Origin: Candidatus Omnitrophota bacterium
Lineage (GTDB): Bacteria; Omnitrophota; Omnitrophia; Omnitrophales; Aquincolibacteriaceae
Length of the DNA: 64,000 nucleotides
NCBI GenBank assembly: GCA_035352955.1
Contig: DAOPYQ010000001.1
Location: 101,536-165,535 of the forward strand
Reading direction: 5' to 3'
The notes below the pieces were generated by a model. It ran no database searches, had not been told where the DNA came from, and was given only the letters and a program-made list of their open reading frames with translations. Shown here one piece after another: positions 9,689 to 53,400 of the stretch (position 1 is the stretch's first letter; each line of letters opens with the position of its first letter). Both the position numbers and the translations under genes were made by a program.

Positions 9689-10870
9689 ATGGATCTTTCG
9701 CGCAGAGTGCTTGCGGTCAAACCCTCCGTCACGCTTGAGATCGCCGCAAAGGCGAAGGCCATGAAAGCGCAGGGGATCGACGTGATCTCCCTGAGTGCCG
9801 GCGAGCCGGATTTCGATACGCCCTCTTTTATCAAAGAGACCACGATCGAATCCCTCAAGAAAGGGAACACCAAGTACACGCCCGTCCCAGGGACCGTGGA
9901 ACTCCGCCAGGCCGTTTGCCGTAAGCTCAAACGCGATCAAGGTTTGGATTTTGCGATCGATCAGATCGTGGTCGGCTGCGGCGCGAAGCACGTGATCTTC
10001 AATGTTCTTTTCGCGATGCTTAACCCCGGGGATGAAGTGCTCATTCCTTCGCCTTATTGGCTGAGCTATCCCGAGATGGTGACCGTGATCGGTGGGACGA
10101 ATGTTTTCCTTCCGACCTCCGTCAAAACAAGTTTCAAGATCACGCCGGATATTCTCGAAAAATCCCTTACGCCGCGCTCCAAACTTTTGATCCTGAATTC
10201 TCCGTCGAATCCGACCGGTGCGGTTTACACCCGGGAAGAACTGTTGGCGCTCTGCGCGGCGCTCAAAAAACACCCGGATGTTTGGATCCTGAGCGATGAG
10301 ATTTACGAAAAGCTCGTTTTTGACGGCGCCCAACATATTTCGATTGCGTCGTTGGACTCCGAGATCGCGAAACGCACGATCATCGTCAACGGCCACAGTA
10401 AGGCTTATGCCATGACCGGATGGCGGCTCGGATACGCCGCGATCCCCGAAAAGGTCCTCGCCAAAGCCGTGGAAAGCATCCAAAGCCATTCGACGTCGAA
10501 TCCCGTCTCTTTTACGCAGCCCGGTGGCGTGGTCGCCCTCGATCAGGGGGATGAGGAAGCCGCGAAGATGCGCGAGGTTTTCCAGAAACGCCGCGATCTT
10601 TTTATTTCCCTTCTCAAGACCGTTCCTTCCTTCAAACCTTTTAAGCCGGCCGGTGCGTTCTATCTTTTTATCGATATCCAGGATACCGGATTGAGCGCCT
10701 TTGAGGTTGCAAGAAAGCTTCTCGAAGAAGCTCACATTGCCGTTATCCCGTGTGAACCCTTCGGCAGCGCGGCTCATATCCGTACAAGTTTCGCTACCTC
10801 CGAAAAGGATATCGAAAGAGCCGTTGAGCGCATCAGCGCCTGGACCAAAAAACTGGCCGTTTCTGCTTAA
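9689..10870 (+). CDS. Class I/II pyridoxal-phosphate aminotransferase (aspartate aminotransferase-like)
   Basis: The 393-aa product has a PLP-lysine region (IIVNGHSKAYAMTGWRLGYAA) and N-terminal LSAGEPDFDTP, typical of AspC-family enzymes. The ribosome-binding site AAGGAG lies upstream. Confidence 0.85.
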   Translation: MDLSRRVLAVKPSVTLEIAAKAKAMKAQGIDVISLSAGEPDFDTPSFIKETTIESLKKGNTKYTPVPGTVELRQAVCRKLKRDQGLDFAIDQIVVGCGAKHVIFNVLFAMLNPGDEVLIPSPYWLSYPEMVTVIGGTNVFLPTSVKTSFKITPDILEKSLTPRSKLLILNSPSNPTGAVYTREELLALCAALKKHPDVWILSDEIYEKLVFDGAQHISIASLDSEIAKRTIIVNGHSKAYAMTGWRLGYAAIPEKVLAKAVESIQSHSTSNPVSFTQPGGVVALDQGDEEAAKMREVFQKRRDLFISLLKTVPSFKPFKPAGAFYLFIDIQDTGLSAFEVARKLLEEAHIAVIPCEPFGSAAHIRTSFATSEKDIERAVERISAWTKKLAVSA

Positions 10871-20903: not shown

Positions 20904-23900
20904 ATGGTAAAAAAAGGCGTATTCCATAGAGAGGACTGTCTCCGGAAAGTGATCGCTTTCCTGACAGTCCTTTTCTTTTTAACGACCGACCTCTTCGGGC
21001 CTAAGGCCTATGCCTTGTCTGCCGTACCCAATTCTGCACGCTCCATGTCTTCCCATGTTCAGGAGGGGAACCTCACCGGCGCTCCTTTGACCTCTGCCAA
21101 GTTTTCGAAGGTCGCCATCCCCTCCGAACATGGAACTATCCTTGAAAGATTTCAGGGAAAAACGGACCGGACCGTAGTCCTGATCCAGGATGCACACGAC
21201 GTTTCAGACGCCCAGGAGAACATCCGGGCGCTGATCGGCTATTTCCGGAAGACGTACGGGATCGGCCTTGTGGCGCTCGAAGGGGCGGCGGGACCGCTTG
21301 ATGCGCGGATCTTCCGGAGTTTTCCTGACAAGGAACTTTTGAAGAGTGTTCTCAAGGAATACCATGAAAAGGGCGAACTGACCGGCGCGGTTTCAGCGGC
21401 CATCCTGGATGAGGAGGCCGGGGATTATTTCGGGATCGAGGACTGGCAGCTTTACGAAGAAGGTCTTGCGCTCTACCGTGCGGCATCGGAAAAAGAGCCG
21501 CAGCTTTTAAAAGCCCTGAATGCCGAGAAGACGAAGAACGACGAGGCCAAGAAGAAACTTTATTCCGCGGACCTTTTTGCGATCGACCGGGGGTGGGGAA
21601 ACTTTTCCAGGGACGGGAAGGGGCTTGCCGAGCTCCTCGGGAAATTGGTTGCCGTCCGGAAACCGGCGCAGGGTTCGGGATTGGCGGCCATCGTCGAAGC
21701 TCTCGGGCAGGGATCATTCGACGGCGCCGCGCTTATTGCCGAAGTCGAAGCGCTTGCGGGGAAGGTCCGGCGCGCGCTTCAAGCGGCATCCGGCAAGGAA
21801 CAGGAAAGGTTCAAGAAGTTCAACGCGCTTTATCAGGATTTCCGCAGCTCAAGAATCACGCCGCAAGCCTTCGCTCTTGCCATGGGGCCCTGGCTTCGGG
21901 AGCACAGGGTCCCTTACAAGGCTTCCGGCGCACTTGAGAGATGGGTCCGCAACCAGAAGATGATCGAATCGATCCGCGGCCCGGAGCTTTTTGCGGAGCT
22001 CAAGGCCTATGTGGCTGAAGTGAAGACCGTTCTCATGAAAACGCCGGAGCAAAGATCGCTCGATGAACAGGGCGAAACGATCCGGATGCTGACAAACCTT
22101 GCCCGCCTCGAATTAAGTGATGAAGAATGGCGGACTTTGTGCGCAACGTCACGGGTCTCTTTGGATGATCGATTTCAGGATCACCGGAAGTTCTATGAGA
22201 ACGCGGAGAGGCGTGACGAGTGTTTTTACCGTAATCTTTCGGAGCGGATCGGTTCTCAGGGCCGAGAAGCGTCCCGGACGGCGCTTTTGGTCGCCGGGGG
22301 GTTCCACACCGAAGGGCTGACGCGCCGGTTCAGGGAGAACGGGATCTCCTATTTTCTTGTCTCGCCTCGCACCGGAGACGCCTCCCTAAAAACGAATTAC
22401 CGCGCCCATATCCGGGGCGACGTTTCCTGGAAGGACCATTTCAAGGTCGAGAATGGCCGCGTCGATCTTTACGCCGCGTTCATTCGCGCGACGCGGGATA
22501 AATTGTTGCAGACGGAACGCGGCAACCGGGGCCCGGAAGTTTTCCCTCCCGTTACTGTCCGGTTACCCTCGTTTGCGGCGAAGGAATGGCGCGATCAGAT
22601 CATTCGCGACCTGGCCCGGGAAGGGAAGATCGCCGAATCGTACCGCTATGTCCGGTTCATGGATGAAACCGCGGAAGGGAGCCGCACCTTTCCGGGGCTT
22701 GAAAAAGTCGACCGTTTTATCGAAGCGCTTCGCCGTCTGGAATCCTCCGGCGCGTTGACGCGGGAAAATATCGTCCATCTTTTAAAGCCGTCGACCATTC
22801 TTTCCGCAGCGGCCGGTAATGCGATCCTCGGCGGGATGACCGTGCCGGCGGCGTTGTTAGTCCGAGAAGGCGGTAAGCGGGACGAGAAACGGGATGAGAA
22901 GCAGGAGATCTCGGCCATGCTTCCTCCCCAAGGCGGGATTGACCTCAGCCGTTATCTATGGTTTCGGTCGCTCCGGGTGCCCGAAATGTACGGGATCCAC
23001 GGGCAGGTGAACGCGCTCAAAGTGAAGGAAGCCGAGTTTTTTGATAGTCGCGAGGACCCGGTGGGCGCGTTCCTGGCTTCAGAGGGTTTTTTGGCGCTCC
23101 CGAACGGCCGTGATCGTCGGGCCGCGCTGACGGCTTTAAGTGAGATCTGGAAAGCTATCAGCAACATCCATTTTGCCAAGGACAGAGTTGTCCGAGGCGA
23201 GAGCGCGTACGATGCGGTACGGGTCCTTGCCGAATATTTAAATCATCCGTTTATCCGGGGGATCAAGGATGATGCGGCTCGCCTTAAATCTATCGAGATC
23301 TTTCGTGAGATTTCGGTCGATACCGTCCTGGAGCTTAACAAGGAAAAGGACTGGCTCGTGAAGCTCTTGGCCGGGGCGGCAACCGCCGGGATCCGGGACG
23401 CCGGGGAAATGGAAGAGTTTTTCGAGATCCTCCACCGGATCCTGAAGAATGTTCTCTTCGATCGGGTTCGCGGCGTAAATGGTCGCGATGATTCTTTCCG
23501 GGACCTCGACGGCATTTTGCGCGATCCCGCGTTTCTCCGGCTGGAAACGTCCGGAGAGCGGAGGGAGGCCCTTGCGATGTTCAAGCGAGTTCTTCCTCTC
23601 GCGCCGCTTTCGCTTATCGGGGTTATCGAATTCAGCGGTGATAGTCGTAGCGCCAGTGTCTTTTTGAAAAGTTTCCTGGCCTCGGACCTTTTTTCGATTC
23701 TCCCGGATTCCCGGGCACGGGAGTACGGTATCGCGCTCATGTCCCGCTTGTATTTTCATAAAGATCCCGAGATCGCCGCGATTGTCAGAAATATTTTTTG
23801 GGAATTCCGCAAAGAAGATGACCGGTTGCAGGAGATTTTCCATAGAGCTATGGCGGACATCGCTTCGCGGAGCGGCCGTGTGGATATAGAACGAGTCGTT

Positions 23901-26900: not shown

Positions 26901-29900
26901 GCACTTAGCCTGCTCTTTGCCATTGAGGTCTTTCCGGATTTTAATGACATGAAAACATTCGCTCTGAATCTTTTCTCGATTCTTGAAAAGCGCTACGGGC
27001 CACTGGACCGGGAGGCTATGGTGGACGCGGCAGAGGATCTTTGGAACAGCATGTTCCCGGCACCGCGCGTGCGGAATTTCTGGACTACAAAAACGAAAAG
27101 CGAGTTTGAGGCATTTGACAGCCTTTTCCGGGACTTTGCGGCCTCGCTTGATGCGGCAAGGACGGCAGGAAGTGAGAAGGCTTATAAACAGGCTGTCACA
27201 CAATTCAAATTGCAGCTGCATCATTATGCGGGACAAAGGCAGGCCAGGGTTACACGGGGAGAGCCGCAGGACGCGCAACGCGCGGCACAGGGTACGCAAG
27301 GGGTAACGGAAGGGAAGTTGTGGGCGGAGAGGGCCGAAGACGGTTTGCGTTCGGAACTTCGCGTGACGCATCCTGACATTCGCGAAAGGATGCGTGGCTT
27401 GAGGCAGAAGATAGAAAACCAGGTCGGGGATACCGGAGCGTTCGGAGCTTATGTCCAACTGCTGGATTTGCCCCCTGCCGCCGCGAGGTCCCAAGTCATT
27501 GGCGATATCAGTAAAGAGCTCAAGAAACAAGCGCGAGCGATCGCGGACACGGTTACGGATCCGGACCCCAAAGTCCAGGAAACGAAACAGAAGACTTTGC
27601 TCGCGAATCTGACAGTGCTTGCGGTCCTTCAGACCATCGACCGTAACGCGAGAAAGGCGGCTTCGACGGAGCCTGCGGGCGACAAGTTCTTCGGCCTGTA
27701 TGAGCGGGAAAGTTTCGTCGAAACGGCGTTCTTCACGCACATGACGGTTTCGCTGAGCAGTTTGCTGAAGGACCTTGATCCCGACTATATCGAGGATGAA
27801 GAACTGCGGCTTTTAACTTTCAAGATCCAGACTTACTTCGGGCTGGAAGCGTTTTTTAAAAGTTCGCCGAAGGTCCATTTCCGTCCGTGGTTTAGCAAAT
27901 TCCTGCTCAATTACATTCTCCGTGAACGTCCCGAACTCGCGCAGGCCCTGTATTCTCTGAATCCGGATCAGAGCCTTGTGGGGCTTCTCGAAGACTGGTC
28001 CGTTGAATCCAAGCTCAAATTCCAGGAGTGTCCGGAGATTACGATCCTGCGGGACATCGTGAAGCGCTACCAGTTCACGTTCCGGGATTTTGTCAGCAAG
28101 AAGAGCGGCCAGCCCTTCGATGAGAACGAGGTCTCGGAACAGTACCAGGGCGACCTTGAAATGCTCATGGAAGACGAAACCGTGCGCGGGCTGATCCAAC
28201 GGGATCTCCGGGGGCTCCAGGATATCGTGACGATCATGCTGACGGAAGGCCGGATCGAAGCGGAAAAGGCCAAAAAAGAAAAGGGCGGCAAGGACGACGG
28301 GTACGGCGAAGTTCGGTACATCCTGGAACAGATCATCCCGAAGGCCCTGCCGAAGATCCGGGAGAGGCTGAATAACGCGGACCCTCTCGAGATCCTTGAT
28401 GCGATGGCGAGCATTGTGCAGGTGGCGAACGGGGAATTCTCCGCGTTGATGGGCAAGTTGCTTGGGGCGCACCCGCGGATCGGGGACAAGTATTCCCGTC
28501 TGATCGCGGGCAACGTCCAACGCCTCAAGCAGATCGGACTGATCCTTGTGGCGGTCGGCGAGACCGGATTTGACCAGATCCCGTTCGATAAACTGGTCGC
28601 ACGCTACAAGATCGTAAAAGGGAGCGACGCCGAAGGCCGGCTTCTCGAGATCATCGCGAACATCGCCCGTTCCGCGAAGGAAGGGACCGCCGGACTGATC
28701 GAAGAAACCTTCGATCTTTACAGCCAGGAGGCCGGCGAGACGTTGGACGACCTGAACAAACTGCTCCGCGCGTTCAATTATTTCGTCAGGATCGTCAATT
28801 TTCACTATGAATACGAAAAACTGGTCCTTGCCGGCGAGGTCGGCCAGATCAATAACGAAACTTATTTCGTGAGCTTGCGCGACCTCAAAAAGACCCTGCA
28901 GATCGTACGGCGCAACTTCAACGCAGGCATGGACATCAAGGAAGCTGCGGCCGATGCGGTGAAACGCCGCTATTACAACCGTCTTAGTCCCGAGGACCGC
29001 GACCGCGTGCGGGGCCTTATGATCTCTCACAGGATCATCCATCCCCACGACGAATTGAAGTTCAGTTATGAGGTCCAAGGATACGAGGTCGGCAGCCGCG
29101 AGATCGTGATCACGGAGAAACGGCCGCCGTATCAGATGCAAAAGAAGGACCGGGTGACGGGGCAGCTCTACATGGAAGAGATCCAGGTCGGGAAGCCTCG
29201 AGAGGTCATGCGTATTCAGTTTAAGGAACCGCTGGAACCCGGAGACGTCGATCCGGACATCATCTTCAACGAAACGACCTGCCGGAATCTGTCGGCGGTG
29301 CTTGAGGCGCTGGAGGTCAAAAACGGCGAAAAATTCAATCCCGTGCTGGAATTCGGGACCACGGCCGGCGGCAAAAGCACGATCGCCAAGCTCGCGGCGA
29401 AGGTCCTCAGGGTCGGTTACACCCGCATCCAGATCAACGAACGCACCGACGAGTTCGATCTGTTCGGGTCCTTTCAGCCGTTCGAGATCAACATGGAGCT
29501 GGGCGATGCGATGGAGCGGATCCGGGAAGCTCTCGATCGCGGGGAATACAACGCGCTTGAAGATGTCCTGAGCCGCATGTTGACGGGCGGAGAGGGGAAG
29601 TTCTGGGAACGGTTCTTCAGCGAAGAAGAACGCCGCGAGATCCTTGCGGGACAGGAGGGACTGGACCTTCACGAAGCCAAACGTCTGGCGATCCAGAAAC
29701 GTGTCCTCGCCCGCGTCGAAAATATCCTCGCGCAGGCGCGAGAACTTTTGCCGTTGGAACATGCGCCTGCCCAGGACCCGAAAGCGGCGGAACGGATCCA
29801 ACTCGTCAAGGCCATGGCGTATATGCTCAATCATGAAGTCGGGCTCCGTTACAAGAAAGGGCGTTTTCTCGAAGCTTACGAAAAAGGTGACCTGATCCTT

Positions 29901-32900
29901 CTTGACGAGGTTAACCTTGCGAACGAGGAAATGCTCGGCGTGCTCTACCAGCTTCTGACGATGGGGTATCTCCAGCACGGTGGCAAGGTCGTCGAACCGG
30001 CGTCCGGCCAGAAAGCCCGTATCCTGGCGACGGCGAACCCTTCAAGCTACGGCGGTCGCAACCGGATGAGCGAGGCGTTCATGAACCGGTTCGAGATCAT
30101 TTATATCGATTCGATGACCGATGAGGAAATGGCCGAGATCCTGGAAGGGACCGTTCATAAAGACCTGATCGCTTCCGGCCGGTATGCGGCGGCGGACTTC
30201 AAGAAACGGGAGGGAGAAACCCCTGCCGAGTGCCGGCAGAGGCTTGACCAGATCCTGCTGAAAGAGATCGGAGTGACACGTTACCATCTGACGCTTTTGG
30301 CCCGGGTCCAGGACAAGATCAACGGCGCGCTCCGCGGCGGGAAATTCATCGGGATGGGTGCCGACGCCGATTATGTTTTTACGATCCGCAATTATTTCAA
30401 TTTATACAAGGACCAGATGGCCCGTAAAAAGCAGGGGCAGACGCTTAGTCTCGAGACCTGGCTGCGCGAAGCCTTTATGGAATACGGGAACGTCCTGATG
30501 CGCACGAATACGTATCTCCTGAATCAGCCGGAACTTTTGAAGGAAGAAGCCTCTTACAAGACGCTTCGCAATATTTTCGGGCTCACGATCGGGGATCCGA
30601 TCCTCGACCTTCCGTCGCTTCAGCATCCGCGCGAAGGCCCTGCCGCGGCGGACGGTACCCCAACGGTGCGGTCCACCCTGCGGCCCGAAAATGCCCATGA
30701 AGCCTTTGATGAACTGGTCGCGAACTGGTTCCGCAAGATCGATTACGAATATGACCGGGCGACGCATACGCTCCGGATCGACGGGCTTACGATCACCGGC
30801 CGGACCCTCGAGGAACGGAAACTGATCGAAGAGCTTATCGAAACGGAGTCCACCAAATACAGCCAGATCGCGGTCCTGAAGGCACTGCTCCTGAACGAAC
30901 CGCTTCTGAACGTGGGCCAGTCCGGCGGAGGAAAGACCGAATCGATCGGGGATATTGTCCAGCGCCTCGGCCGCAAGTACGTCACGGTTTCCCTCGGAGA
31001 CGCGACGCTTGAAAGCCTGCTTGGGAACATGGAATGGAATCCGCGGGAAAAACGTTTTGTCTACGTTCCGGGGATCCTCGTCAAAGCGATGCAGGACGGA
31101 TCGGCGCTCGTGCTTGAGGAACTGAACATGGCGAAGTCCGGCGTGATCGAGATTCTGAACGAATATTTTGACGAAGGGACCTTCACCAATCCTTTTACGC
31201 TCGAGAAGATCAGGGTCCATTCTGATTTCCGGTTGTTCGCGACCATGAATCCTGTGCAGGGTATGACGGGGCAGAATGGCGGACGCGTGAGCCTTTCTCC
31301 GGCTCTCCGCAACCGTTTCCGCGAAGTATGGGTGCCGCACGAAAAAACGGATGCGGAAATGCGGGAGATCCTTCAGGGGCGTTTTGCTCAGAAGAATATC
31401 CAGGTCGGGGATGTTTCGATGAAGAAGATCCTCGCGTTCTTCCACGCGTATCAGGAAGCGTTCCGTTTCCGCGGCGAAGCGGCCTACTATACGAGCCCGC
31501 GCGACCTGACGCGTATCGTCCGGATCATGTCCTATCTCATCACCGTCTGCCATATGGATGAAGAAAAAGCCCTCTCCCGAGCGGTGCGGCGCGTGTACTT
31601 TGCCAAGATCGCGAAAGAGGAGGACCGGAACGATGTCCGCAAACTGATCGCCGAGGCAAAGATCCCGTCCGGCGAGATCCGGGCGCCTTCCTACCGGTTT
31701 TCCGAGGACAAACGTTTTCTTGAGGCCTACGATGGCCAGGAACTTGTCGCGCGTTTCGATGTGACCGCCCACCGGTCCCGCCTAGAAAAGATGATCGAGG
31801 ACGAGATCGGTGAAAACGATCCCGGCATTTCCGGAGAGGCGCTCCGCTCGCAAACGAAGTCCAAACTGGAACAGGCACTGAAAGAAGCGACGCTGGTTGA
31901 GAATGCGCACACGATGGAGAATCTGCTCGGGCTCATAGAGGCCGTTGCGATGGACGATCAAGATGTCCGGCAGGGAAAATTCAACCCGGTCCTTCTTCTT
32001 GGCGAAACCGCAGGAGGGAAGACCTCGCTTGTGAAATATCTTGCCGTGGCGATCCTCGGACAGGGGTACACCCGCATTCAGATCAACGAACGCACCGATG
32101 AGCTGGACCTTTTCGGTTCGTATGAACCGCGTGAAATGAAGATCGGAACGGACGATGCGGTCCGGATCGTCCAGAACGCCATCGAAGAAAAAGAGTGGGT
32201 CAAGCTCAAGAAAGCCCTGCAGATGTTGAGAAAGGGGTACGCCGGCGAGGATGAATTCGACCGGTTGCAGGATCCCGAGCGGATTTTCGAGCAGCTTGCG
32301 GCAGAGGAAACGGCCGCCCGTGAAGAGATCTTCCTGTATCTCCGGCAGGCCGTCTCGGATGACGCTGATCCCCAGAGTCGTGACGCGGCGATCCACCGGC
32401 TCAAGGTGATCGCGTATCTCGTGAAAAACGGGGCGATGAGCGTGGAAATGGAGTTCCGGGAAGGGCGGTTCCTTTCCGCCCTGAAACGCGGGGATTTTAT
32501 CGTGCTCGACGAGATCAATCTTGCGAGCGAAGAGTCGATCGCCGTCCTGTACCAGTTCCTCACGCTCGGTTTTGTGGAATATTACAACAAGGACGCCAAA
32601 GATGAGAACGGCAATCCCCACCCGCGCGTCGAGAAGATCTATCCGCCGGCGGGAATGAAACTGGCCGCGACCGCGAACCCGTCCGGTTACGGCGGCCGCA
32701 ACCGTCTCAGCGAAGCGCTCATGAACCGTTTCGAGATCCAGTACCTGCAGAACATGTCGCCGGAACAGATGAGCGAGATCATTATGGGAGAAAGCGCCCG
32801 CAAAAGCGTTTTCGCGAAAAATACGCGGTTGGCCGGCACGGTCCTGAAACTCGCCAAGCTTCAGCGGCAGATCAACTTGACCCTGGGAAGCGACGCTAAT

Positions 32901-35900
32901 CCTTTTCCGTCCGTCGGTTCGGGGCAGACGCAGGGATATCTGTTCACGCTCCGGGACCTGAAGCGGATCATGCGGAGCGCTGAAGAGATCCTTAGCCAGG
33001 GGAGCCGTTCGCCACCCGAGGCCCTGGTGGTCCAGCAGGCGTACCTGGAATATCTCGGCGTGCTCGGCCGAAGCGACGACGAAGTGAAACATCTTCTCCA
33101 GATCTTTAAATTCCCAGAATTTTTCCCGTCGTTCGATCCCGACCAGCTCAATCTCTCGTTCGAGGAAACCCGGAACGCCCGCGGCCGGAAGGTCATCCGG
33201 ATCGGCGGTTTCGAGATCGAAGAGCGCGACTATGACGGCAAAGGACCCTCGAATGAAGCGGACGTCATTGAAGCGCTTGAGGAAGGTCCGCTGACCAATT
33301 TGATCCGCATTGCGATCGTGAAAGGTCTGTTGGACCCACGAAGCCCCGTGATGGCGGTCGGCCAATCCGGCGGCGGGAAAACCGAAATGATCGGGGATGT
33401 CTGCCGGCGGCTCGGATGGAAATACCGGTCTGTGTCGCTCGGGAACGCGTCGCTTGAAAGGTTGATCGGAGGCTATGAGCGGGATCGGGAAACGAAGATC
33501 TTCCGGTATATGGTCGGCGAACTGGTTCGGGCCATGGAGGACGGCGCGGTCTTTGTGCTTGAAGAAGCCAATATGGCGAGTTCGGGGCTCGTGGAAATCC
33601 TGAACGAATATTTCGATGAGGGAACATTCACCAATCCTTTGACGGGGCGGAAGGTTGTGATCCACAAGGATTTCCGCCTGTTCGCCACGATGAATCCGGA
33701 GGTCGGTGTGACCGGGTCGAATGCCGGCCGCGTGGGATTCTCCCCGGCGCTCCGGAGCCGTTTCAAGGAGGTCTGGGTACCGCACGTCAAGACCTCCGAC
33801 GAGACAAAGCGGATCATTCGTAAAAAATTCACAAATCAGAAGATGAAGGTTTCCGACAAGACCGTTGAACAGCTTTATTCGATCTACGAGATGTTCCGAA
33901 CCTACGTGGAAGGATTCAATGATGAGACCGGTCTGTTGCATCCCGCCCGCATCGGCCAGGTGAACAACGAAGGCTACTACACCAGCTTGCGCGATATGGG
34001 AAAGATCGCGGACATCATGGTCCAGGACATGCGGCGTGGCGTTCCAGAATCCGAGGCTCTCCGCTATGCGGTCAAGCGTATCTATTATCTCCGGTTAAAT
34101 TGCGAGGAGGACCGAAAGGTCGTGCGGGAAGAGATCCTTGCCGGTCTGGACATGACGCCGATGGAATACCGATGGAGCCTGGAGGGGGCCGAGTATGTGA
34201 TCCGTCGCGGTCCGATCGAAGTGGCCCGCGTGTCCGCCGAGCTTCTCAAGAAAAAACATTTTGTCCTGACGGGTCCCGCGAAAGAAGAGATGGGTTTTCT
34301 GATCGAAGCGATGAGCCGCGGCCCCGGGTTCAAGCGGTCGTTCAATCCTGTCATGCTTTTCGGTGAAACGAGCGGTGGCAAGTCGACCATGATCGAGATC
34401 GCCGCGCACATTTTCAGGAAGAAGTTCAGACGTATCCAGATCAATCAGCGGACCGACGAATACGATCTCCTCGGAAGCTATCATCCCGTCGAGATGAAGC
34501 TCAGCCTGGCGCGCAGCCTCGAGGTCTTCCAGGAGAACCTCCGGAAGAAGAACTATTCCAAGATCGCGAAAGCGCTCCGGGTCTTGAAGAAGGACGTCCG
34601 GCTCTCGCTTCATCTTACGGAAGATGAGAAAGTGAGCGATGCCGAACTTTTCCAGCGCTTCCTCGACCAATACATCCTGCCCGGCGTGAAGCGAGAAGAC
34701 TCTACCGTCATCGAGGAGGCCCGTAAACTCGCGGTCCTGATCCATAACGGAGTGGCCGGTATCGACCTGGTCCACCAGACGGGATTTTTCCTTGAAGCCG
34801 TCGGGAACCGGGACGAAGGGATCCCGGGCCGGATCGTGCTTCTTGATGAGGTCAACCTTGCCAACGAGGAATCCATCGGGCTTCTTTACCAGATCCTCAC
34901 GCTCGGTTATATGGAATACCAGGGCAAGCGTATCTATCCCGGCGACGGCTTCCAACTCGTGACGAGCGGCAATCCGTTCACCTATTCCGGCCGCAACCGG
35001 ATGAGCGAGGCGTTCATGAACCGGTTCGAGATGCATGTGATCCCGGAGATGACGCCCCAGGAAATGGTCCAGATCCTTTGGGAAGGTTATGATCTGCAGG
35101 CCAAAGGGATCTCGCAGAACGCCTTGCAGGAGATCGTCGCCCTGCAGGTGAGGATCCATGAAGAAAGCATGAAACACTCATTCGATGGGTTCAATCTGGA
35201 CAACACTTACCGTTTCACGCTCCGCAACCTTGAGAGGATCGTCGAAGACGCACTGAAGCGGAAAACCGTCGAATCTTCCCGGAGCGCCGACGAGTGCCTC
35301 TGGGTCGAGGCCTACATCGAATACGCCGGGCTGCTGAGCCAGTCGAACGAGGATGACAACGCCGAAAAGAACAATATCGCGACGCTGAAAGGCCTTTTCC
35401 ACGACACCTTGCTCCGGGAAGGCTATGCCGTGCTGGGCAAGAAGATCGAATCGGGCAAAAAAGAAGAGCTGGAAAAACTTCTCGGCGTGCTCGGGATCCT
35501 GACTGAAAAAAAGACGGTCGACGATATGAAAGCGCAACTTAAGGAGATCCTCGCCTGGTCCCTTGGCGGCAATCTCGGGGCGACCTTGCAGGTCCTGAAG
35601 CTGGTGGAGGCCGTCACGGGCAAGCCTTATCAGCCGTGGTATCCGGACAGGGATCCGCTTTTCATGGAATTCCGGAAGATGGCCGTGACGCAGGAAGGGC
35701 AGACCGAGTGGGCCGAACTCGGAGGGGTCCGTGTCGCGAAACTTTCGGCTTCCGAGATGCTCGAAAGTTTTCTTAAAGAATTCGGGACCGATACGGAAAG
35801 CGGGCTTTTGAAAGGACCGAACGGAGAGGCCTTGGAGGCTTTCGACGGGAACAGCCAGAAGTATATCTTGCAGCAGATCCAAGGTATTGCCGTCCGCCGG

Positions 35901-38900
35901 CTTAAGCAGGAAGGCGGGAATCTCAAGGATCTGTTGCGTCAGGAGGTCCAGAAATGGATCGCCGGGCAGCTGGAAGGTTTCCGTCTGCCGCCCGGTTATA
36001 TCGAAGGGCTCTTGCGCAAACATTTTTACACGCAGGCGGAAAGGATCGAACAACTTGTCGAATTGAGATCGACCCTGATCCCGCGCATGCAGATCATGAA
36101 AGGTTTCCGCGACGGTGGCGTGGTCCAGACGGAGGACACCGAGGGCAATCCGGTCGCGATCCACAAGTCGCGCCCCGTCAATGAGATCGGGCAGTCCGGC
36201 GGAGGGAAGACCGAAATGGTCGCCGACATCGCGCGGGAACTGAACTGGCCGTACATGTCGGTCGCGCTCGGCGCCGCGACCGTGGAATCGCTCGTGGGCG
36301 AATTCGTTCTGAACGACCAGACGGGCGCTTTCGAATTCCGGAAAGGGATCCTTGTTCGCGCGATGGAAGAGGGCGCGGCGCTTGTGCTCGAGGAACTCAA
36401 TATGGCCGAGAGCGGCGTGATCGAGATCCTGAACGAATATTTCGATCGCGGGGTCATGACGATCCAGGGCCGCAAGATCTCGGTGAAGATCCACCGCAAT
36501 TTCCGCCTGTTCGCGACGATGAATCCGACGGAAGGCCGTACCGGGAAGAATGCCGGCCGGATCCCGCTTTCGCCGGCCTTGAGGAGCCGGTTCCGCGAGA
36601 CATGGGTCCGCAGCGAGCGCACGAAAGCGGAGCAGTACCGGATGGCGCTTGGAGGCATTCGCGATCTTGTGAACGGTTTGATGGAACGCGGGATCCCCGA
36701 GGAGTCCGAGGACGCCATGGGGATCCTGGAAGAAAACCTGACGCGGCAGAAGATCGCCGAAAGGTCCGGTCTCCGCAATCTTCCCAAAGGGAGGGACAGT
36801 ATCGAGGACGGGGTCACGGTCGAAGCGGTTCGCCCCGTCACGGCGCGCCCGGCCGCGCGTTCCCCGTCCGCACCTGCCGTGAGCATGGCCGCTCCGGCCG
36901 GCGAGCCTGCCGTCAAGATCCCGACCAAAGGAGAATGGGAACGGCTGCACCTGGAGGAGAGGAAAAAACTTTATGAAGACACGTTCTCGATCATTACCGG
37001 AAAAGCGGACATCAAACTGGTGGCCGGCAAGGGCTGGTCGTGGGCGCCTGCCAGTCATGTTCTGACTTACGATGAAAAAGACATTGAGAACCTGAGCCTG
37101 AATGCTCTTCTCGGCGTCGGGATCCATGAAGCCATGCACCGTATCGGGACGCGGTACCTTTCACTTTTCTGGGAGTTTTTCGACGAGCACGGAATCGAGA
37201 GCCGCGTTTTCAATACGCTCGAGGACGGGCGCATCGAGAACTGGGGGCGTTTCCTTTTCGGCGGGGCCGCCACGCCTTTACGCGCGACTAATGACGAAGT
37301 CGTGTTCGGGAAAGTAAAAGACGTGGACGAAATGGTGGAGCGGTTTGTGTTCCGCCAGAAGGACAAGGAGGGCAACGTTGTCGAACTTTCCTACACGTCC
37401 GCGATCATTAACTTTTTTCTCTATCTCGGCAAACGGGGTTCGGATGCCAACGCTCCCGAAGTCATCGAAAAGTTCCTGAAGGCTTTCGAGAAACGGGACC
37501 CGCAGCTTCGCAGGGACCTCGCGGGGCTGCTTCAGGCAGGGTATTTTGGAGGCGGGCGCGACGAGGATATCCTGAACCCGCCCAACCAGAACCGGGTGTC
37601 GGGCGTTTTCTCTAAACTTCCGATGAAAAGGAACGAATTCGGGACTTACGAGTTCGACGCCAACCCGGCGGGAACGACGGTCGAGAATCTGGCGATCGAA
37701 CAGGGGATCATCATCCGCGAATGCATCATGCCCATTGTTTATAAATGGGCCGTCAAGGATCTTGCGGACGTTCCTTCGGGAAAAGGGAAAAAAGGTAAGG
37801 GCGGAAGGGAAGTTATCCCGCGGAAATCTTCCGGGGGTGGCGGGGAAGATGACAGCGATGGGGACGACGGGGGCGAAAGCGATGGGGAGAGTGAACCCGG
37901 CCAACCGGCTGATGGATCCCCCAAGGATTTCAAGCCTGGAAAGCCGGCAAAGGGCGGTCAGCCCGTGAAGCCGATGACCCCGGCGGAGTGGAAAGCGATC
38001 TGGGACAAGCTCTCCAACGAAGACAAGAAAAAGTTGACGGACAAGATCGACAAGGGCGTCGAGCACAAGGCCCAGGACCGTACGGCCAAGGATTCCAAGG
38101 ATTACCAGAAGGCCCAGCAGGACGCCGAGATCGGAAAGCCGATGAGCGAGCGCGATCGTTTGATGGGACTCCTCGGGCGTATGATCACGGAACTTTCGGG
38201 GTACCTGCGCGACATCATCCAGAATTCCGTCCGTCCGAAAGAGATCACCGGTCTCAAGCGCGGACGTATTGACGTCCGGCGTCTGATCAACTCCATGGCG
38301 CGCGGATTCACGGACATGCGGTTCTATAAGCAGCGGATCCTTCCGCAAAAAAAGAACGTTAAGTTCACGATCATCGTGGACGAGAGCGGCAGTATGTCCG
38401 GCATGGAAGAACCCGGCAAGAAAGTCGAGATCAATACGCCCCAGAAAGGGTACCGGACGCTGATGGGCGTGACGCTTCTCATGGAGGTCCTGGAATCGCT
38501 CGGGATCGATTTCGCCGTCCGCGGTTATCACGACACGACTTGTCTCCACAAACGGTTCAAGAACCAGAGGATCCCTTCGGACAAGAAAGACCAGTACCTG
38601 GAAGCGGGGCAGGATGCCGTTCAGGACGGCTATACGACGAGGCGGGACAAGGAAAGTTTGATCGATCTTCTCCGCCAGAGCATCGGTCGCGGCGGGAACA
38701 ACGAAGGGCCGGCGCTGGAAGCCGCGATCCGGGACGCCGGGGAGGCGGGCGGTGAGCGGCACTATATTATTATCCTGACGGATGGCATGGGCGATGAAGA
38801 GGCGATCAAAAAGCATGTCGCTCAGCTCCGGCAGGCGAATGGTATGGTGAACGGGACCAAGGTGGAATTGATCGCCATCGGCCTCGGGAACGATTGCGAA

Positions 38901-41900
38901 TCGGTGATCAACAATTACGGCGGACGATACTCGATCTGGCTCAAGGATGACGAGGTCCAGAAACTTCCGGCCGAACTCAAACGCATTCTCCAGGAAGTGA
39001 TCCGCGGTGTTTTTCAACCCGGCGCGCCCGGCGCGAACCGTTTTGAGAATATGGCCCGGGGCTTCAGCCTTGCCGGTGTGGCCGGCATGGTCGGCGCATC
39101 CCGCGTCCGTTCGGAACTTCGCGCTTCCGAAAAGGTCCCCTCTCTCTCCGGCGCCGAAGACGAGGGGCTTGGCGAAGATCAGAAAACATGGTTCCGTTCT
39201 TTGCAGTTCAGGAGTCCGGAGGAGCGTTCGGAACTTCTCAAGGTGATCCGGGACAGCCATTTTTATTATGAAGATCTGGTGGGCGAGACCCCGGGGGGAA
39301 GCCCTGATTTTCAATACAAGTTCGGGGATGGTCTGCCGATCCTTCAAACGTTTTGGGAATCGGAATCTTTTACAACACTTCCGGATTCGCGAGAAAGGAT
39401 CCTGGTCTTGAGGCTCTTTGACGGGATTTTGAATACCGGGGATTATTTTATGATCCAGCAGGCTGCCAGGATCCTGGAGCGTTTGGTGGGTCCTGAAATT
39501 CTCGGAAAGGTTACGGACCCTCAGGAAAGGGTCCTCGCCCTGGAAGTGACTGCGGATATCCTGGTCCAATCGAGCGTTTACAGTCCGTGGGGTAATACAA
39601 TATCCCGAAGTGAAACCGTTATGGATTCTTTCCTGTATTTTTTAAGCACCTATTATCCGGAGATAAATAAAAATTTCGAAAAGAACGCGGAAACTTGGGG
39701 CTTTTTCCGGGAAATCATCCGTGCGGGGTATGAGCCCGAGCGAAGGTTTGAAGAAACCAGCAGGGCTTTTGGCATGCTGGGCAAGTTAATGGACTTGGCA
39801 GGTTTTGAGCGGGTTGGCGGACCGGAAGCGAAAAAGAGGGTTCTGGGCGTTGTGAAAGATATCCTGGTTTATTCGCAGCCAGGATCCCAAGAGGCGTTCG
39901 AAGCTTTAAGGACCTTGCTTGGAGGTCAAGGTTTCGGCTCGATCCAGGATCCGGACGAACAGGGAGTGGTGCTTGAGATCCTTTGCGCCGTTCCGTTTCT
40001 GGCCCGCGAGCGGGCGGACGCGTACTTCCAGAGATTCGATCAAATGCTTTCATGGGCTTCCGGTGGGGCCGCGAGCTTTCATGAAAAACGTTTTAGGGAG
40101 ATCCTTCTCGAGTTTTCTTCCCGGCCCCGGTCTGCCGAAGCGGCAGAGAACGCCTGCCAGAAGATCATCCAGCTGGCAGATCAAAGCGCAGCCCGTGAGA
40201 CACGAGGGGAACAAAGCCCGGTTCCCGAGCCTCAAGCCCTGCTTGCCGGCAGGCAAAGTTCTGTTCTTGAGAATAAGGAAGGGAAGTTGTGGTTTGAAAT
40301 TCCAACGACGGATGACGGAGATCGGATGGCGGAGGACGGACGGCTAAAGGCAAAAGGTTTTTCGACATCCGACATCCGTCCTCCGCAATCCGTAAGCGAA
40401 GATGTCAGCCGCGCAGAGCGCAACGCGCAACGCACAACGAAAAACGGAGATTCAACGTTGACCGTTGCGCGTGGCACGTCGAACGCGGACGAAATCCGCC
40501 GTGCCGAGCTCCGCATTTCCGGGATTCCTATGATCCCTCTTGACCGTTACCAATGGTTTAATGCCGATACAAATGAAGAGCATAAGGCCGAGCTTCGCCG
40601 GAAAGTCGCCTTGCTTGAAAACGAACTTCGCCGTTATCAGGGGGATGAACTTAGAGAAGCTCTGCGTTGTTTCAAAGACTGGTTCGCTTCAAAGGATTGG
40701 ACCGCCGCCGGGGTGGATTATGAGCAACGATTAAAGATGCTGGAGATTGCGGTGAACCTGCAAATCCATGTTTATCCGGGAATGGTCTATAGTGATGGAA
40801 GGCCTGCTTTTGACCATGAGAAGCTGAAGCCTTTCTCGGCTTTTCTGAAAAGCGACGCCTTTCGGCAGATCGTCGATCCCGCCGAGCGGCAAAGGGTGTT
40901 CGGCGTGCTCGCGGACATTCCTCCGCGTGCCGGGGATGCTGCGCCTAAAGCTTTCAAGGCCCTGGAAGCGTTTCTTGGCAGAGCAGGGTTTTCCGGAAGG
41001 GTGGACCCTTCGGAAAGAACGCGCATGCTGGAGGTGTTCCGGCAAACGGTGCTGGATATTTCGAATAAAAATGTGAAAGGTGATGCGTTTGCGGGGCTTG
41101 AAGCTCTGAATCGCATCAAGGCCGTTTCGGATCTTGCGGATCCGGCCAGCTTAAAAAAGATATTCGATCTTTTTTGGGAGATCGGCCGCACGCGGGATTA
41201 CTGGAAATGTGACTCTTTCGAACCGTTGGCGCAATTTCTCGCCTCGGATGCAGTACGCGGGATCAAGCATTTCGAGGATCTGTGCGCAATTTTTGACATT
41301 TGCAAAACACTTGTTGATTTAGGGATCAAAAACCGGGCGGCGGCATTCTGGGGTCTCGAAGGGTTTCTCAGAACGCAGGATTTTTCCATGCGGGAGGACG
41401 CGGTTCTTCGGGGGATTCTTTTGAAAGAATTCTCCGGGATATTTGCCCTTGTCGGGAATGTTGGAGGTTACTATTCGGATGAGCGGTCCGGTGCCTTGGT
41501 CGCTTTGGGGGATTTTTTTAACAGAAAATGGGGATTTGAACGGCTCGAGACGAACAGAAAGGTGATCGATCTTTTGGGAATGATCTTGCCCGGTCTGGCG
41601 GATGAAGATGTGCGCGGATGGATCGAAGCGTTTGGCCTGGATATTTCCGCGATCAGCCATACGGAATCCCTGAAGGGAGAGCCTATGGTAAATATCCTTC
41701 AGGAATTTTCTCAAGGAGCGGAAAGCGTTACGGGAGCTGAGGAACGCAAGGCCTTGGCGCAGGCGGCGGCGGAGAAGATCCGGGCGTTGGCAGATCATGC
41801 CCAGGCGCGCGCGGCGCGCGGGGAAGCGCATGACGCGCAACGCGTCGCGAACGGCGCGCAACGAGGAGTCGAAGGGAAGTTGTGGAACCAAACGGCGGAG

Positions 41901-50409: not shown

Positions 50410-50482
50410 CCCGATTTGCTTTTTAAGGAAAATGGGTTATTTTTTATTAGTAAAATCATTTAAAAAGATTTAGAGGACAAGG

Positions 50483-53400
50483 ATGCCGTCTAACTTAAGT
50501 CAAACAAATATAACGGTTTATCGAAGATTTATTGCTGCGTTAACCGTCTGTTTTTTTATATTCTCAGACCTCCTGTTTTTTCCGTCCCAAGGCTTTGCCG
50601 GAACCCAGGATATGAGGACGAACAAGACAAGTATTTCCGCCAATATTTCTTTTCCCGCGCAAGTTGAGAAAGTCGAAATCCCTTCCGTGCTTGGCAGCAT
50701 TGAGGAGCGTTTCCGGGGCAACGGTTCGAAGGCTGTGGTGCTGATCCAGGACGCCCACGCCATTCCAACGGCTCAGGAGAACATCAGGAAACTTATCGCT
50801 TATTTCCAGGAACAGTACGGAGTCCGGCTTGTGGCGGCCGAAGGCGCTGCGACGCGACTTGACCCGCAGCTCTTCCGCAGTTTTCCCGATAAGGAACGTT
50901 TGGCGAAAGCGCTGGAACCTTACGCCGGTGAAGGCCATTTGACGGGCGTTGTGGAAGCGGCGCTCCTGAATTCCGTAGCCGGTGATTTCTGGGGGATCGA
51001 AGACGCCGGATTGTATGAGGAAGGGCTGGGTTTTTATCGCCGGGCCATGACCGTTTCTCCGTCGTTGGCTATCGAGATCCAACGAACGGAATTGAGGAAC
51101 TCCGGGCTCAAGGCGGCGATCTATCCTCCGGAACTTTTCGCGGTCGAAAAAGCGCTCGACGCTTTTTATGAGAATAAACTCGGTTTTGCGGAAGCGCTCA
51201 AGACGCTGGTGGTGGTTCGTCCTCCGGCGCGCGGGACCGCACTGGCGCTTATCGCTGAAGAGATCGTCCGTTCCCCGGCGTCTCCGGTGAAAGATCCGGG
51301 GATCGGAAGCGAGACCGGCCGGCTTGCGGAGCGGATGAACGACGCCCTGAAGCAGCGTTTGGTTTCGAGTTCTTCCGAGATGAAGGAATGGAATCAGAAA
51401 TACCAGTCGTTCCGGACGGGGGCCCTGGAAGACGGGGACTACGCGGCCTATCTGAAAGACGTGGCCCGTACGCAGCAGATCCCGATCACCGTCAGCGCTA
51501 CGCTCGATGCGAAAATTTCCCGGCACGAGAAATTCAGGGATATCGAAGGGGGCCTGCTTGTCCGGGAATTCGAATCTTATGTCCGGGAGGTCTCCAGGGA
51601 GCTTTTGAAAAAAAGTTCCGATGCGGACAAGGCGCTACGCCTTTACGAAAGCACGAACCGGCTGCGGCTTCTCAAAAGGCTCGCGCGGCTCGAGCTCGGG
51701 TGGGAAGAATGGGAGATCCTGAAAAAAGACATCGGACAAGTGTCCGCGGGGCTGCTTCAGACGTCGGAACTCCACCGGAATTTTTACAAGAACGCGGAAA
51801 AACGCGACGGCGCTTTTTTGAAAAACCTGGCACGGTTGGACCGCGAGGGTCCGACCCTTCTTGTCGCGGGAGGTTTCCACACCCGGGGGCTTGCGAACGG
51901 ACTGAAGGCCGCGAACATTCCTTACGTCGTCATTCGTCCCGCGATGGGCGCGGTTCCGGAGAAAAGTGTCTATCAGGAGCAGATGTCGGGGAACGTTCCC
52001 TGGAAAGATTATTTTGAAGAGCGGGACGGACGTGTTGATGTCCGTGACGCGTTTACCCGCGCGATGAGCGACAAATTGTTGCAGCCTGCAGGGCCAAAAG
52101 ATTTTGCGTCATCCTTCACCCTTTCGCCGTCCTCTGTGGCGAAAGCCTGGCGCGACCAGATCATCCGTGATCTTGCGGCGCAGGGGAGGATCGAACGGGC
52201 CGGGGAGTACACGCGGTCGCTGGACCGTCTTGCCGGACGTCGTGTTCCGAAGATCGAAAATTTTATCCGGGCTCTTCAGGCGCTTGAAACCTCGGGCGGG
52301 TTGAATCGCGATAACATCCTGGGCCTTTTGAAAGGCGCGCACATTCTTCCCGCTGCGGCGGGCAACGCGATCCTGGGAAACACGACTCTCCCGGTATCGT
52401 TGCTCACTCCGTTCTCATTACCCACAACAACCTCCGAGGTTAAATCTGGCGGCATCCCAACTCAAACCTCGGGGGTTGAGCCCGGCCGTCGTGCGGGCGA
52501 TGAGGATTTTCAAAAATCCCACAGTACGGAATTGGTGGAGAGGCCGACAAGTGATGCTCCCATCCGATCGGAATCACGAATCGAGGCGACAGATGCGGAG
52601 TGGGAGAAGACGCTTGCGTTCTTGAAATCCGCTGTGATGGGGGATTGGAACAGGGAGATCGAGGGATTTACCGAGTATAGTTTGTCCCGCGATGGGCGGT
52701 GGTTCTTTGCCCAATATGATAGTGGGCGGTCGGGAAAGCTGATCGATCTTTCGACGGGTGAAGAGATGCGGCTTGCCGATGGGCGGACGTTTTCGGAGGT
52801 CTACGGGACCAGCGTTAGGCTCGAATTTTCAAAAAATAGCCGTTATGTTCTAGATCGACACAGTGGGATGGTGATCGACCTGATGACCCGTGAGGAAAAA
52901 ACGACCGACGAGGGTGTGCCGTTGTCGCGAGTGATGGATCTCTCCAAGATAGTTTTAAGGGACTTCGAAGCGGATTATCTTGAAGGGACGGTCCGTGGGA
53001 AAAAGGGAGTGATCGTTTTTGATATGGGCACGGGAAAAGAGCTTGTGAGCGCCGCAGGAAAACCGCTTTCGGAGCTGACGGGTCCCGATGTGAAAGCAGT
53101 CCATATTTCACCGGATAAGAGGTGGTGTTTTGTCGGCTATCAAGATCTCGGCCTGAAGTTGATCGATCTTAAGACGGGGCGCCTGGGCCTATCCGGTAAG
53201 GGCAGTCCCGGAAAGGGAGGAGACCCGATGGGAACCTTTTCATCCGATAGTCGTCTTTTTGTGCTGCAGGGGAAAAAGGCAAAAGTCATAGATCTCAGGA
53301 CGGGGAAGCCCCGCATGACAGATTCCGGGCAGAAACTTTCTGACGTGATTGGGAAGACCATCGGCTTTGCTCAGTACCCAGCTTTCGGGAGCAGATTGAT

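Follow-up and report, generated by a model that had tools for sequence, protein, structure and literature searches.

Single polypeptides that carry six AAA modules are known as dynein and midasin, and they have been placed in early eukaryotic evolution as derivatives of bacterial one-module MoxR ATPases (PMC3495828). MoxR AAA+ proteins pair functionally with a VWA/MIDAS domain (PMC13036017; PMC7159879), and in NorQ–NorD a VWA finger enters the NorQ pore (PMC13036017). The protein described here is bacterial, comprises 9,803 residues and is encoded in a 64,000-nucleotide stretch of DNA from a Candidatus Omnitrophota bacterium (contig DAOPYQ010000001.1), referred to below as the window. It is a variant of the midasin or MoxR–VWA kind, with a three-fold ring of two-module units and with Glu-Glu sites.

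The best points of comparison come from midasin. In the midasin Rea1 the large domains of AAA2, AAA4 and AAA6 carry alpha-helical H2-hairpin extensions, AAA6 lacks a small domain and the N-terminal domain (NTD) fills its place beside the large domain of AAA1, while the MIDAS domain docks on the ring and is gated by the H2-alpha inserts (PMC6286127). Midasin AAA1 and AAA6 have no Walker B motif, AAA2–AAA5 being canonical; a Walker A mutant of AAA1 still complements, and this site is regarded as non-hydrolytic and dispensable (PMC5116814), with nucleotide held in a closed site (PMC6286127). In dynein a lid-like bundle precedes AAA1 (PMC4047620).

Window 28716–36617 probably, if far from certainly, encodes the motor of a giant midasin-like protein, a single-chain ring of pseudo-three-fold symmetry with working Glu-Glu sites in every second module. 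The architecture of the ring, its origin and its neighbouring domains are described in turn, followed by the readings that compete with this one.

Two module types alternate around the ring

The giant open reading frame (ORF) occupies window 20904–50315 on the plus strand, starts with ATG and runs for 29.4 kb without an internal stop; all other parts of the protein are enclosed in this single frame and lie on the same strand. A regular-expression scan finds exactly six G....GK[ST] sites in the protein, at residues 2818, 3338, 3700, 4153, 4487 and 5096. Pfam assigns AAA_5 to the ring (E = 6e-80), and a phmmer search of the PDB returns Mdn1 at 2.9e-84 and Rea1 at about 7e-81, with CobS, NorQ and CbbQ reaching only 1e-7 to 6e-4.

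Two motif sets alternate strictly over the six modules in the order A-B-A-B-A-B. Modules 1, 3 and 5 (A-type) carry ..GGK[ST], RIQIN[EQ]RTDE.DL[FL]GS, hhhhDE[VI]NLA.EE and GRNR[ML]SEA[FL]MNRFE, the last of which occurs three times in the giant protein; their Walker B sequences read LILLDEVNLANEE (residue 2997), FIVLDEINLASEE (3865) and IVLLDEVNLANEE (4644). Modules 2, 4 and 6 (B-type) carry GQSGGGKTE, VLEE[LA]NMA.SG and FATMNP...SPALR[NS]RF[RK]E, each present three times. The original prediction had listed these motifs from the letters and all are present where it placed them, except that its Walker A pattern FNPV[LM].FG fits only domains 1 and 5, domain 3 reading FNPVLLLGETAGGKT. Its limits for the ring, 29330–36650, correspond to residues 2809–5249 and do span the module 1 Walker A to the module 6 Arg region, but the ring begins about 600 nt earlier, with the lid domain at 28716–29138 that is discussed below.

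The two types also differ in build. A-type modules combine a canonical Asp-Glu Walker B with a helical insert of about 120–140 residues, which appears to lie at the helix-2 position, and B-type modules are compact with a Glu-Glu Walker B. The distance from Walker A to Walker B is accordingly 160–182 residues in modules 1, 3 and 5 and 66 residues in modules 2, 4 and 6. An AlphaFold model of a whole A+B unit, made from a three-row alignment, reached a mean predicted local distance difference test score (pLDDT) of 53, and only the order of its secondary structure elements was used, with no three-dimensional comparison.

Profiles of the A and B types delimit the six modules. The A1 large domain lies at 29289–30095 (residues 2796–3064; A profile 431 bits), with Walker A GTTAGGKS, Walker B LILLDE (D3001, E3002) and GRNRMSEAFMNRFE; its helical insert falls at about nt 29472–29891 (about residues 2857–2996) and its small (lid) domain at 30096–30533 (residues 3065–3210; lidA profile 175 bits). 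The B1 large domain follows at 30849–31343 (residues 3316–3480; 308 bits), with GQSGGGKTE, ALVLEE (E3405, E3406), FATMNP and SPALRNRFRE, and then the B1 lid at 31344–31703 (residues 3481–3600), recognised by a lid profile and by the Pfam midasin lid AAA_lid_7, which matches residues 3485–3584 with 31.2 bits against a cut-off of 22.7. In the second unit, the A2 large domain at 31935–32735 (residues 3678–3944; 446 bits; Walker B FIVLDE with D3869; insert at about residues 3740–3864) and the A2 lid at 32736–33113 (residues 3945–4070; lid profile) precede the B2 large domain at 33291–33788 (residues 4130–4295; Walker B VFVLEE with E4220, E4221) and the B2 lid at 33789–34178 (residues 4296–4425; lid profile and model). 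The third unit consists of the A3 large domain at 34290–35030 (residues 4463–4709; 407 bits; Walker B IVLLDE with D4648; insert at about residues 4526–4643), the A3 lid at 35031–35393 (residues 4710–4830; lid profile), a linker at 35394–36134 (residues 4831–5077) defined by gaps in the unit alignment, and the B3 large domain at 36135–36617 (residues 5078–5238; Walker B ALVLEE with E5163, E5164), after which there is no full lid. The linker between the A3 lid and B3, of about 250 residues, is far longer than its equivalents in units 1 and 2, and among related species its length varies from about 80 residues (locus L014) to about 430 (L009).

Similarity within the ring follows the same alternation. 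When tiled BLAST queries of the ring region were compared with the giant protein, off-diagonal matches appeared at offsets of about 770–940 residues, with identities of 33–46% between A modules, 42–66% between B modules and 24–33% between A and B. Summed bits were 176–196 for A-A and 179–255 for B-B pairs against 44–88 for A-B pairs, and B1 matched B2 with E = 1e-70. The alternation that the original prediction had described is thus far above chance, and the six domains are not equally divergent. The three units are 40–43% identical in protein, and their DNA similarity, mostly 69–85%, is confined to motif blocks, which indicates an old duplication that survives as a repeat at the protein level.

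A genome scan using one genome per species (GTDB) found 17 loci of this kind. Twelve are labelled Omnitrophota, Omnitrophica or a named candidate genus, four are metagenome-assembled genomes (MAGs) labelled 'uncultured bacterium', and one is a MAG labelled Chlamydiae. Every complete ring among them has the order A-B-A-B-A-B and a seventh module is never present. Over 15 species the B cores are more conserved, with mean pairwise identities of 68–71% against 52–56% for the A cores. Two related genomes have a ring divided between two ORFs. The L005 break lies near nt 11810, inside the fourth module and in the same frame, and that of L007 near nt 10000, between the A3 lid and B3, with a change of frame. 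These splits could be sequencing errors, pseudogenes or real divisions of the chain.

The original prediction also proposed that B modules have Glu at the Mg-coordinating position of Walker B, where Asp is canonical. The acidic pairs of modules 1 to 6 read DE, EE, DE, EE, DE and EE, so that the canonical hhhhDE is present in modules 1, 3 and 5 and its Asp is replaced by Glu in modules 2, 4 and 6. In the DNA the Glu codons are GAGGAA at 31116–31121 (B1), GAAGAA at 33561–33566 (B2) and GAGGAA at 36390–36395 (B3), and the A modules have GAC or GAT followed by GAG. Column counts over 48 A and 49 B modules from the 17 loci give Asp as the first acidic residue in every A module and Glu in 48 of the B modules; the single B module with Asp is the fourth module of L008 (LVLDEINMA). 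The second residue is Glu in all 97 modules, and A and B modules alike show next to no variation at the Walker A Lys, the sensor-1 Asn or the Arg residues (conserved in about 100% of the 49 B copies). First-position codons are GAA (39), GAG (8) and GAC (1) in B modules and GAT (33) and GAC (14) in A modules. Since the codons drift synonymously, and Asp and Glu are one third-position change apart, selection is indicated for Glu in B and for Asp in A. Beside this, the residue directly after the P-loop Thr is acidic in B modules (GKT[ED]; Glu in 38 and Asp in 8 of 49) and Ser or Thr in A modules; it co-varies with the Glu-Glu pair and might belong to an altered metal site.

The assignment of the first Glu to the Asp position withstands the objection that B-type Walker B motifs are misaligned or that a canonical DE pair lies nearby. 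HMMER aligns B3 ALVLEELNMAESGV to Mdn1 AAA3 WIVLDELNLAPTDV, and in a 13-row alignment that combines B modules and eukaryotic AAA3 and AAA5 the motif VLEE.NMA is matched to VLDELNLA and flanked by invariant Gly, Leu, Glu, Asn and Ala. The 66-residue spacing from Walker A to Walker B equals that of compact DE modules. An AlphaFold model of B2 built from the 13-row alignment (pLDDT 82.6; predicted template modelling score (pTM) 0.74) forms beta-3 from residues 102–106, the last of which is E4220, and it has hairpins at residues 75–90 (helix-2) and about 128–137 (pre-sensor-1), before beta-4 (144–149). Column alignment, spacing, codons and model agree: the first Glu falls in the Asp column and no DE pair lies nearby. 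The Glu-Glu pair would appear to be a rare but strictly conserved catalytic motif of alternate modules.

The repeat unit and the origin of the ring

The domain in front of module 1, at window 28716–29138 (residues 2605–2745), is a B-type small (lid) domain by BLAST, by shared motifs and by lid profiles. In the tiled BLAST comparison residues 2612–2748 match the lid after B2 (residues 4319–4450) with 30% identity (E = 9e-11), and in the three-unit alignment the pre-A1 lid and the lids after B1 and B2 have Y[YF].S.RD[LM] and AV[KR]R.Y...EDR in common. B3 is without a lid, the chain continuing into a Pro/Ala-rich linker. When lid profiles were applied to the 17 related loci, the layout lidB-AL-lidA-BL (L, large domain) was found three times over, with nothing after the last BL, wherever the ring was covered, and a lidB stood before module 1 at every locus that covers the start of the ring (scores 74–142). 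As read from sequence, the repeat unit is [B lid, A large, A lid, B large] x 3, with the sixth lid in front of module 1. Since the lid expected after module 6 stands before module 1, large and small domains still number six each in the chain.

Trees were used to place the triplication. In a 15-species tree each ring position forms its own clade, with support of 100% for D1, 100% for D2, 98% for D3, 68% for D4, 100% for D5 and 99% for D6; the front lid likewise forms a clade (100%), as do the A lids (95–99%). The B large domains branch as ((D2,D4),D6) with 70% support and the B lids as ((after B1, after B2), before A1) with 78%, two topologies that agree provided that the front lid belongs with module 6. 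For the A modules the sequence of duplications was not recovered by this tree.

A profile of the three units was searched against 1.84 billion proteins and gave 716 hits at E <= 1e-30. The close family comes first, followed by two further prokaryotic lineages and then by proteins of the size of eukaryotic midasin, three of which were dissected and are midasin-like. Lineage 2 (P0016, P0017, P0019, P0022, P0034 and P0134; source labels Omnitrophota and Elusimicrobiota) shares the A and B types of the family, with Glu-Glu in B (LVLEEINF), a B-type lid before A, and an HExxH module and a VWA domain after the last B; its units are spaced by HEAT-like repeats of about 900–2,000 residues (P0016, P0017, P0019). 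In lineage 3 (P0020, P0021, P0023 and P0078) two compact P-loop types alternate, all with Asp-Glu, and the chain again ends in HExxH and VWA. Compared with the window protein, then, lineage 2 has widely spaced units and lineage 3 has compact, Asp-Glu modules; members of both lineages are uncharacterised.

Individual members of these lineages deserve mention in their own right. P0016, of lineage 2, is apparently complete at 2,083 residues and has two units only and no VWA domain, so that two or more chains may come together in some rings. P0021, of lineage 3 (4,005 residues; NCBI MFC1753351.1; labelled Thermoproteota archaeon), carries a set of six compact AAA_5 modules in which GET-type and GPT-type P-loops alternate, followed by an HExxH-like segment (HEAGHA) and then a VWA domain. 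If the binning of P0021 is right, archaea also have single-chain six-AAA rings with a MIDAS domain.

In a bootstrapped neighbour-joining (NJ) tree built from 160 core columns that the modules share, A modules from the family and from lineage 2 group together with 100% support, as do the corresponding B modules, and within these groups the family's own A modules, to the exclusion of those of lineage 2, form a clade at 78% and its own B modules at 86%. The joint clades together with the family-only clades indicate that the A/B pair predates the ring. The triplication itself was a single event in this family, later than its split from lineage 2 and earlier than its radiation, and the position-specific clades agree with this. 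The trees hence bear out the original proposal that the ring is (A+B) x 3, made by triplication of a two-module block. An ancestral two-AAA unit, which that proposal had hoped to trace among bacterial proteins, did not emerge: the search found no complete single-unit protein. P0134, considered for a time as a single A+B 'ancestral unit', was withdrawn, its source record being 'partial' and the protein filling its contig.

The ring makes it possible to test how asymmetric rings evolve from pairs, down to the last lid left at the front of the chain.

Downstream domains and genome context

After B3 a Pro/Ala-rich low-complexity linker, read directly from the translation, extends over window 36801–36923 (residues 5300–5340). 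Between the ring and the VWA domain lies a zincin-like HExxH module at 37041–37283, with GIHEAMHRIGTRY at about residue 5408 (GIHEAMHR) and, about 30 residues later, NTLEDGRIENW at about residue 5440. The motif pair is present in all three prokaryotic lineages, as HESMHR, HEGLHR or HEGGHR together with N..ED.R[IV][EN]NW, and was not seen in the eukaryotic midasins examined; no Pfam or NCBIfam family matches the module. The putative VWA domain with its DxSxS MIDAS motif, at 38346–38933, was likewise recognised by motifs read directly, IIVDESGSMSG at residue 5823 and ILTDGMG further on. It starts about 580 residues after the ring and is followed by about 3,800 residues of further chain. At a resolution of 400 residues there is no D/E-rich segment (D+E 0.12–0.17 throughout), only a short acidic and Gly-rich patch.

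The N-terminus of the giant protein (window 20904–21030, residues 1–42) reads MVKKGVFHREDCLRKVIAFLTVLFFLTTDLFGPKAYALSAVP and resembles a signal peptide or signal anchor; the homologues P0015 and P0016 start in a similar way. NCBIfam searches of the N-terminal 2,600 residues, the HExxH–VWA segment and the C-terminal 3,653 residues gave no family. A short motif, RSE[VM]R, occurs at junctions of repeated modules in several giant proteins across lineages, with seven copies in P0015, five in P0012 and two in P0078; the window protein has one copy (AERRSEVRSG, at window ~41904, residue 7001).

The genes upstream of the giant ORF are bacterial housekeeping genes: SecY, an Mfd-like helicase, SurA, PdxA, KsgA, a polyprenyl synthase and enolase. 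About 150 nt 3' of its stop a second giant ORF begins (50474–64000, plus strand), open for 4,509 residues to the end of the window, in which Pfam found no match beyond a faint WD40. Published accounts of giant Omnitrophota genes make no mention of midasin, dynein or MoxR, and a literature search for prokaryotic or bacterial midasin returned nothing relevant. A recognisable machine is now added to these largely unannotated giant proteins.

Rival readings and comparison with known systems

The original prediction contrasted this ring with eukaryotic midasin and dynein as sets of six individually diverged modules. For midasin the contrast falls away, for midasin alternates too: besides the H2 inserts of AAA2, AAA4 and AAA6 (PMC6286127), dissected midasins have Walker A to Walker B spacings of 65–69 residues in D1, D3 and D5 and of 122–201 in D2 and D4, and D6 aligns through the A-type insert. 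D2 and D4 are mutual best matches in two of the three species compared (139–168 bits, other pairs 41–150), and group together with 67% bootstrap support in an NJ tree. Eukaryotic midasin alternates compact and insert-bearing modules in the opposite register, with the compact module first. Its AAA1 reads hhhED (for example VLIEDIDLA, about 67 residues after Walker A) in six of seven midasins (P0005, P0006, P0007, P0009, P0024 and P0111), so that Glu takes the place of the Walker B Asp and Asp that of the catalytic Glu; in the S. pombe-like P0043 it reads ILFTNIEHA. The cited papers describe AAA1 simply as lacking Walker B.

In the favoured mechanism all six sites would bind nucleotide, and the Glu of the B modules would be a selected functional variant of the Mg-site residue, the B sites probably having different kinetics or a coupling role. 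The three A-type inserts may stand out on one face of the ring and form a platform or gate with three-fold symmetry, comparable to the H2-alpha inserts of Rea1, as far as a low-confidence model allows. ATP-driven movements of the ring would tug at the connecting segment, at the HExxH module and at the VWA/MIDAS domain of the same chain, and the VWA/MIDAS domain would hold a substrate peptide and engage the ring, as in Rea1 (PMC6286127) and NorQ–NorD (PMC13036017). On this account the B sites would probably be functional, with a change in Mg coordination or in kinetics, and not dead. The greater conservation of B modules and their retention of the catalytic Glu, sensor 1 and Arg fingers argue against degeneration.

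Several observations weigh against this reading. A literature search for AAA+ Walker B motifs with Glu in place of Asp gave nothing relevant, and no such site known to hydrolyse ATP was found; the only natural parallel found, the hhhED of midasin AAA1, belongs to a site regarded as non-hydrolytic (PMC5116814), which is also without the catalytic Glu. The Pfam match to VWA (E = 7e-4, 20.3 bits) is below the cut-off of 23.8, with a faint VWA_CoxE match besides. The proposed role of the N-terminal lid and the placement of the inserts both draw on sequence and on the secondary structure of the model with pLDDT 53. Finally, a start resembling a signal peptide would be at odds with a cytoplasmic ATPase and puts in question the side of the membrane on which the ring lies.

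In one alternative the B sites bind ATP without hydrolysing it, so that three catalytic A sites would alternate with three regulatory or structural B sites, by analogy with the catalytic and non-catalytic sites that take turns around the alpha3-beta3 ring of F1-ATPase. Hydrolysis at alternate sites had been likened in the original prediction to dynein, but dynein is not a strict alternate-site machine either. Such an arrangement would account for Glu at the Mg-site Asp in 48 of 49 B modules, and the tight conservation of B is equally compatible with a structural nucleotide-binding role; midasin AAA1, the sole other Glu site found, is reported to lack a functional Walker B, tolerates a Walker A mutation (PMC5116814) and holds nucleotide in a closed site (PMC6286127). 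Against it, B modules keep the second Glu and the sensor-1 Asn in 49 of 49 copies, together with the Arg residues, whereas midasin and dynein sites that have lost hydrolysis usually lose these; Glu is moreover a conservative replacement for Asp, and Asp itself occurs in a natural B module, the fourth of L008. Non-hydrolysing B sites are a possibility to be kept in mind, but a rather doubtful one. Far less can be said for the repeat being an artefact, whether of metagenomic mis-assembly or of a pseudogene in decay. A metagenome-assembled genome is the probable source of the window, and the ring is divided in L005 and L007, but the 29.4-kb frame has no stop, Tandem Repeats Finder detected no tandem DNA repeat over window 20904–64000, the same order recurs in 17 independent genomes with position-specific clades, and units so dissimilar in protein and, outside the motif blocks, in DNA are not collapsed or duplicated reads. 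An artefact is effectively refuted.

A different question is whether the alternation of two types was inherited from an ancestor of all midasin-like proteins, with A corresponding to AAA2/4/6, B to AAA1/3/5 and the array cut differently. Here the signals conflict. The H2 extensions of midasin (PMC6286127) are at the same place as the A inserts; the GET-type P-loop is common to bacterial A modules, eukaryotic D2 and D4 and one type of lineage 3; the first-position Glu and an LGD motif are common to bacterial B modules and AAA1; whole-domain profile scores place D1 with B (by 16–41 bits) and D2 with A (by 5–25 bits); and both rings lack the last lid and have another element before module 1 (PMC6286127). 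The GET P-loop and the Glu of AAA1 may thus hint at a link between the A/B split and midasin. On the 160 core columns, however, eukaryotic domains are equidistant from bacterial A and B, the 'all A-like' split receives 0% in the NJ tree, the scores of D3–D6 are inconsistent, and the eukaryotic NTD has no similarity to any lid profile; insert-bearing alternate modules may also have evolved in parallel. The clear A or B preference that eukaryotic domains show in one comparison is confounded by insert versus compact architecture, which it mostly reflects, and is not relied on. Shared inheritance of the alternation is accordingly regarded as unlikely, if conceivable. Two narrower candidates were not upheld: an orthology in which A pairs one to one with AAA2/4/6 and B with AAA1/3/5 (NJ 0%, neutral core distances, profile scores consistent only for D1 and D2), and the midasin NTD as a relocated lid, for which lid profiles of the bacterial modules and of eukaryotic AAA1–5 gave no significant match to seven NTDs (best whole-sequence E = 0.004, no single aligned stretch below 0.027).

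A further, speculative extension is that the unit of one insert-bearing and one compact module was the ancestral block of the whole midasin lineage and arose in prokaryotes, midasin being a differently phased cut of the array and the 'ED' of its AAA1 a relic of the B-type Glu. This is tentative. If it were true, the point at which single-chain six-AAA rings with a MIDAS domain arose would move from 'early eukaryotic evolution' (PMC3495828) to bacteria or archaea, and the present family would provide a tractable, less diverged model for the division of labour between the sites of a midasin-type ring.

Returning to the reading favoured here, a midasin-like motor with working Glu-Glu sites, the likeness to midasin lies in six AAA_5-type modules per chain, a midasin-type lid, the alternation of compact and insert-bearing modules and a putative VWA/MIDAS domain downstream in the same chain. 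In both, the last module is without a lid and another element stands beside module 1 (PMC6286127; lid profiles). The front element has a parallel in position in both Rea1 and dynein; only here is it recognisable as a lid by sequence. The differences are equally plain. The window ring has its inserts in modules 1, 3 and 5 and compact modules at 2, 4 and 6, whereas midasin has inserts in 2, 4 and 6; all six of its sites keep the acidic pair, Lys, Asn and Arg, three of them as Glu-Glu; and its modules are far less diverged from one another, for which reason mutating equivalent A or B sites should give cleaner answers than in Rea1. Among the things open to such a test is the effect of the Glu that selection maintains at the Mg position of Walker B in three of six sites. 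The VWA domain follows the ring after about 580 residues with an HExxH module between them, in contrast to the linker of about 1,700 residues plus a D/E-rich region in midasin, and the bacterial protein has about 2,600 residues before and about 3,800 after the parts from ring to VWA. Removal of Rsa4 and Ytm1 from pre-60S particles is a eukaryotic nuclear process, while the window gene sits among bacterial housekeeping genes; to our knowledge there are no substrates of the Rsa4/Ytm1 type in bacteria.

Two related ATPase modules that alternate and divide their labour are also found in Pex1/Pex6 and Rvb1/Rvb2, which are trimers of dimers, and in the alpha3-beta3 ring of F1-ATPase. Those rings consist of separate polypeptides from other clades of AAA+/RecA proteins, whose homology to the present modules ends with the P-loop fold, and serve as a working analogy only. 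The MoxR systems NorQ–NorD, CbbQ–CbbO and RavA–ViaA are closer, sharing the fold, the helix-2 and pre-sensor-1 hairpins seen in the B2 model, AAA_5 and the association with VWA. A Foldseek search with the B2 model places NorQ and CbbQ at the top (E = 1e-16, template modelling scores of 0.7–0.84), followed by Rea1 and dynein, although the sequence similarity of the ring to MoxR members is weak (E = 1e-7 or worse). MoxR proteins are homo-hexamers of one-module subunits with a separate VWA protein; the window protein instead has six modules of two kinds with a VWA-like domain in cis. Prokaryotes, then, also have single-chain midasin-like rings with a putative MIDAS domain in cis, and this ring still displays its construction from one block used three times.

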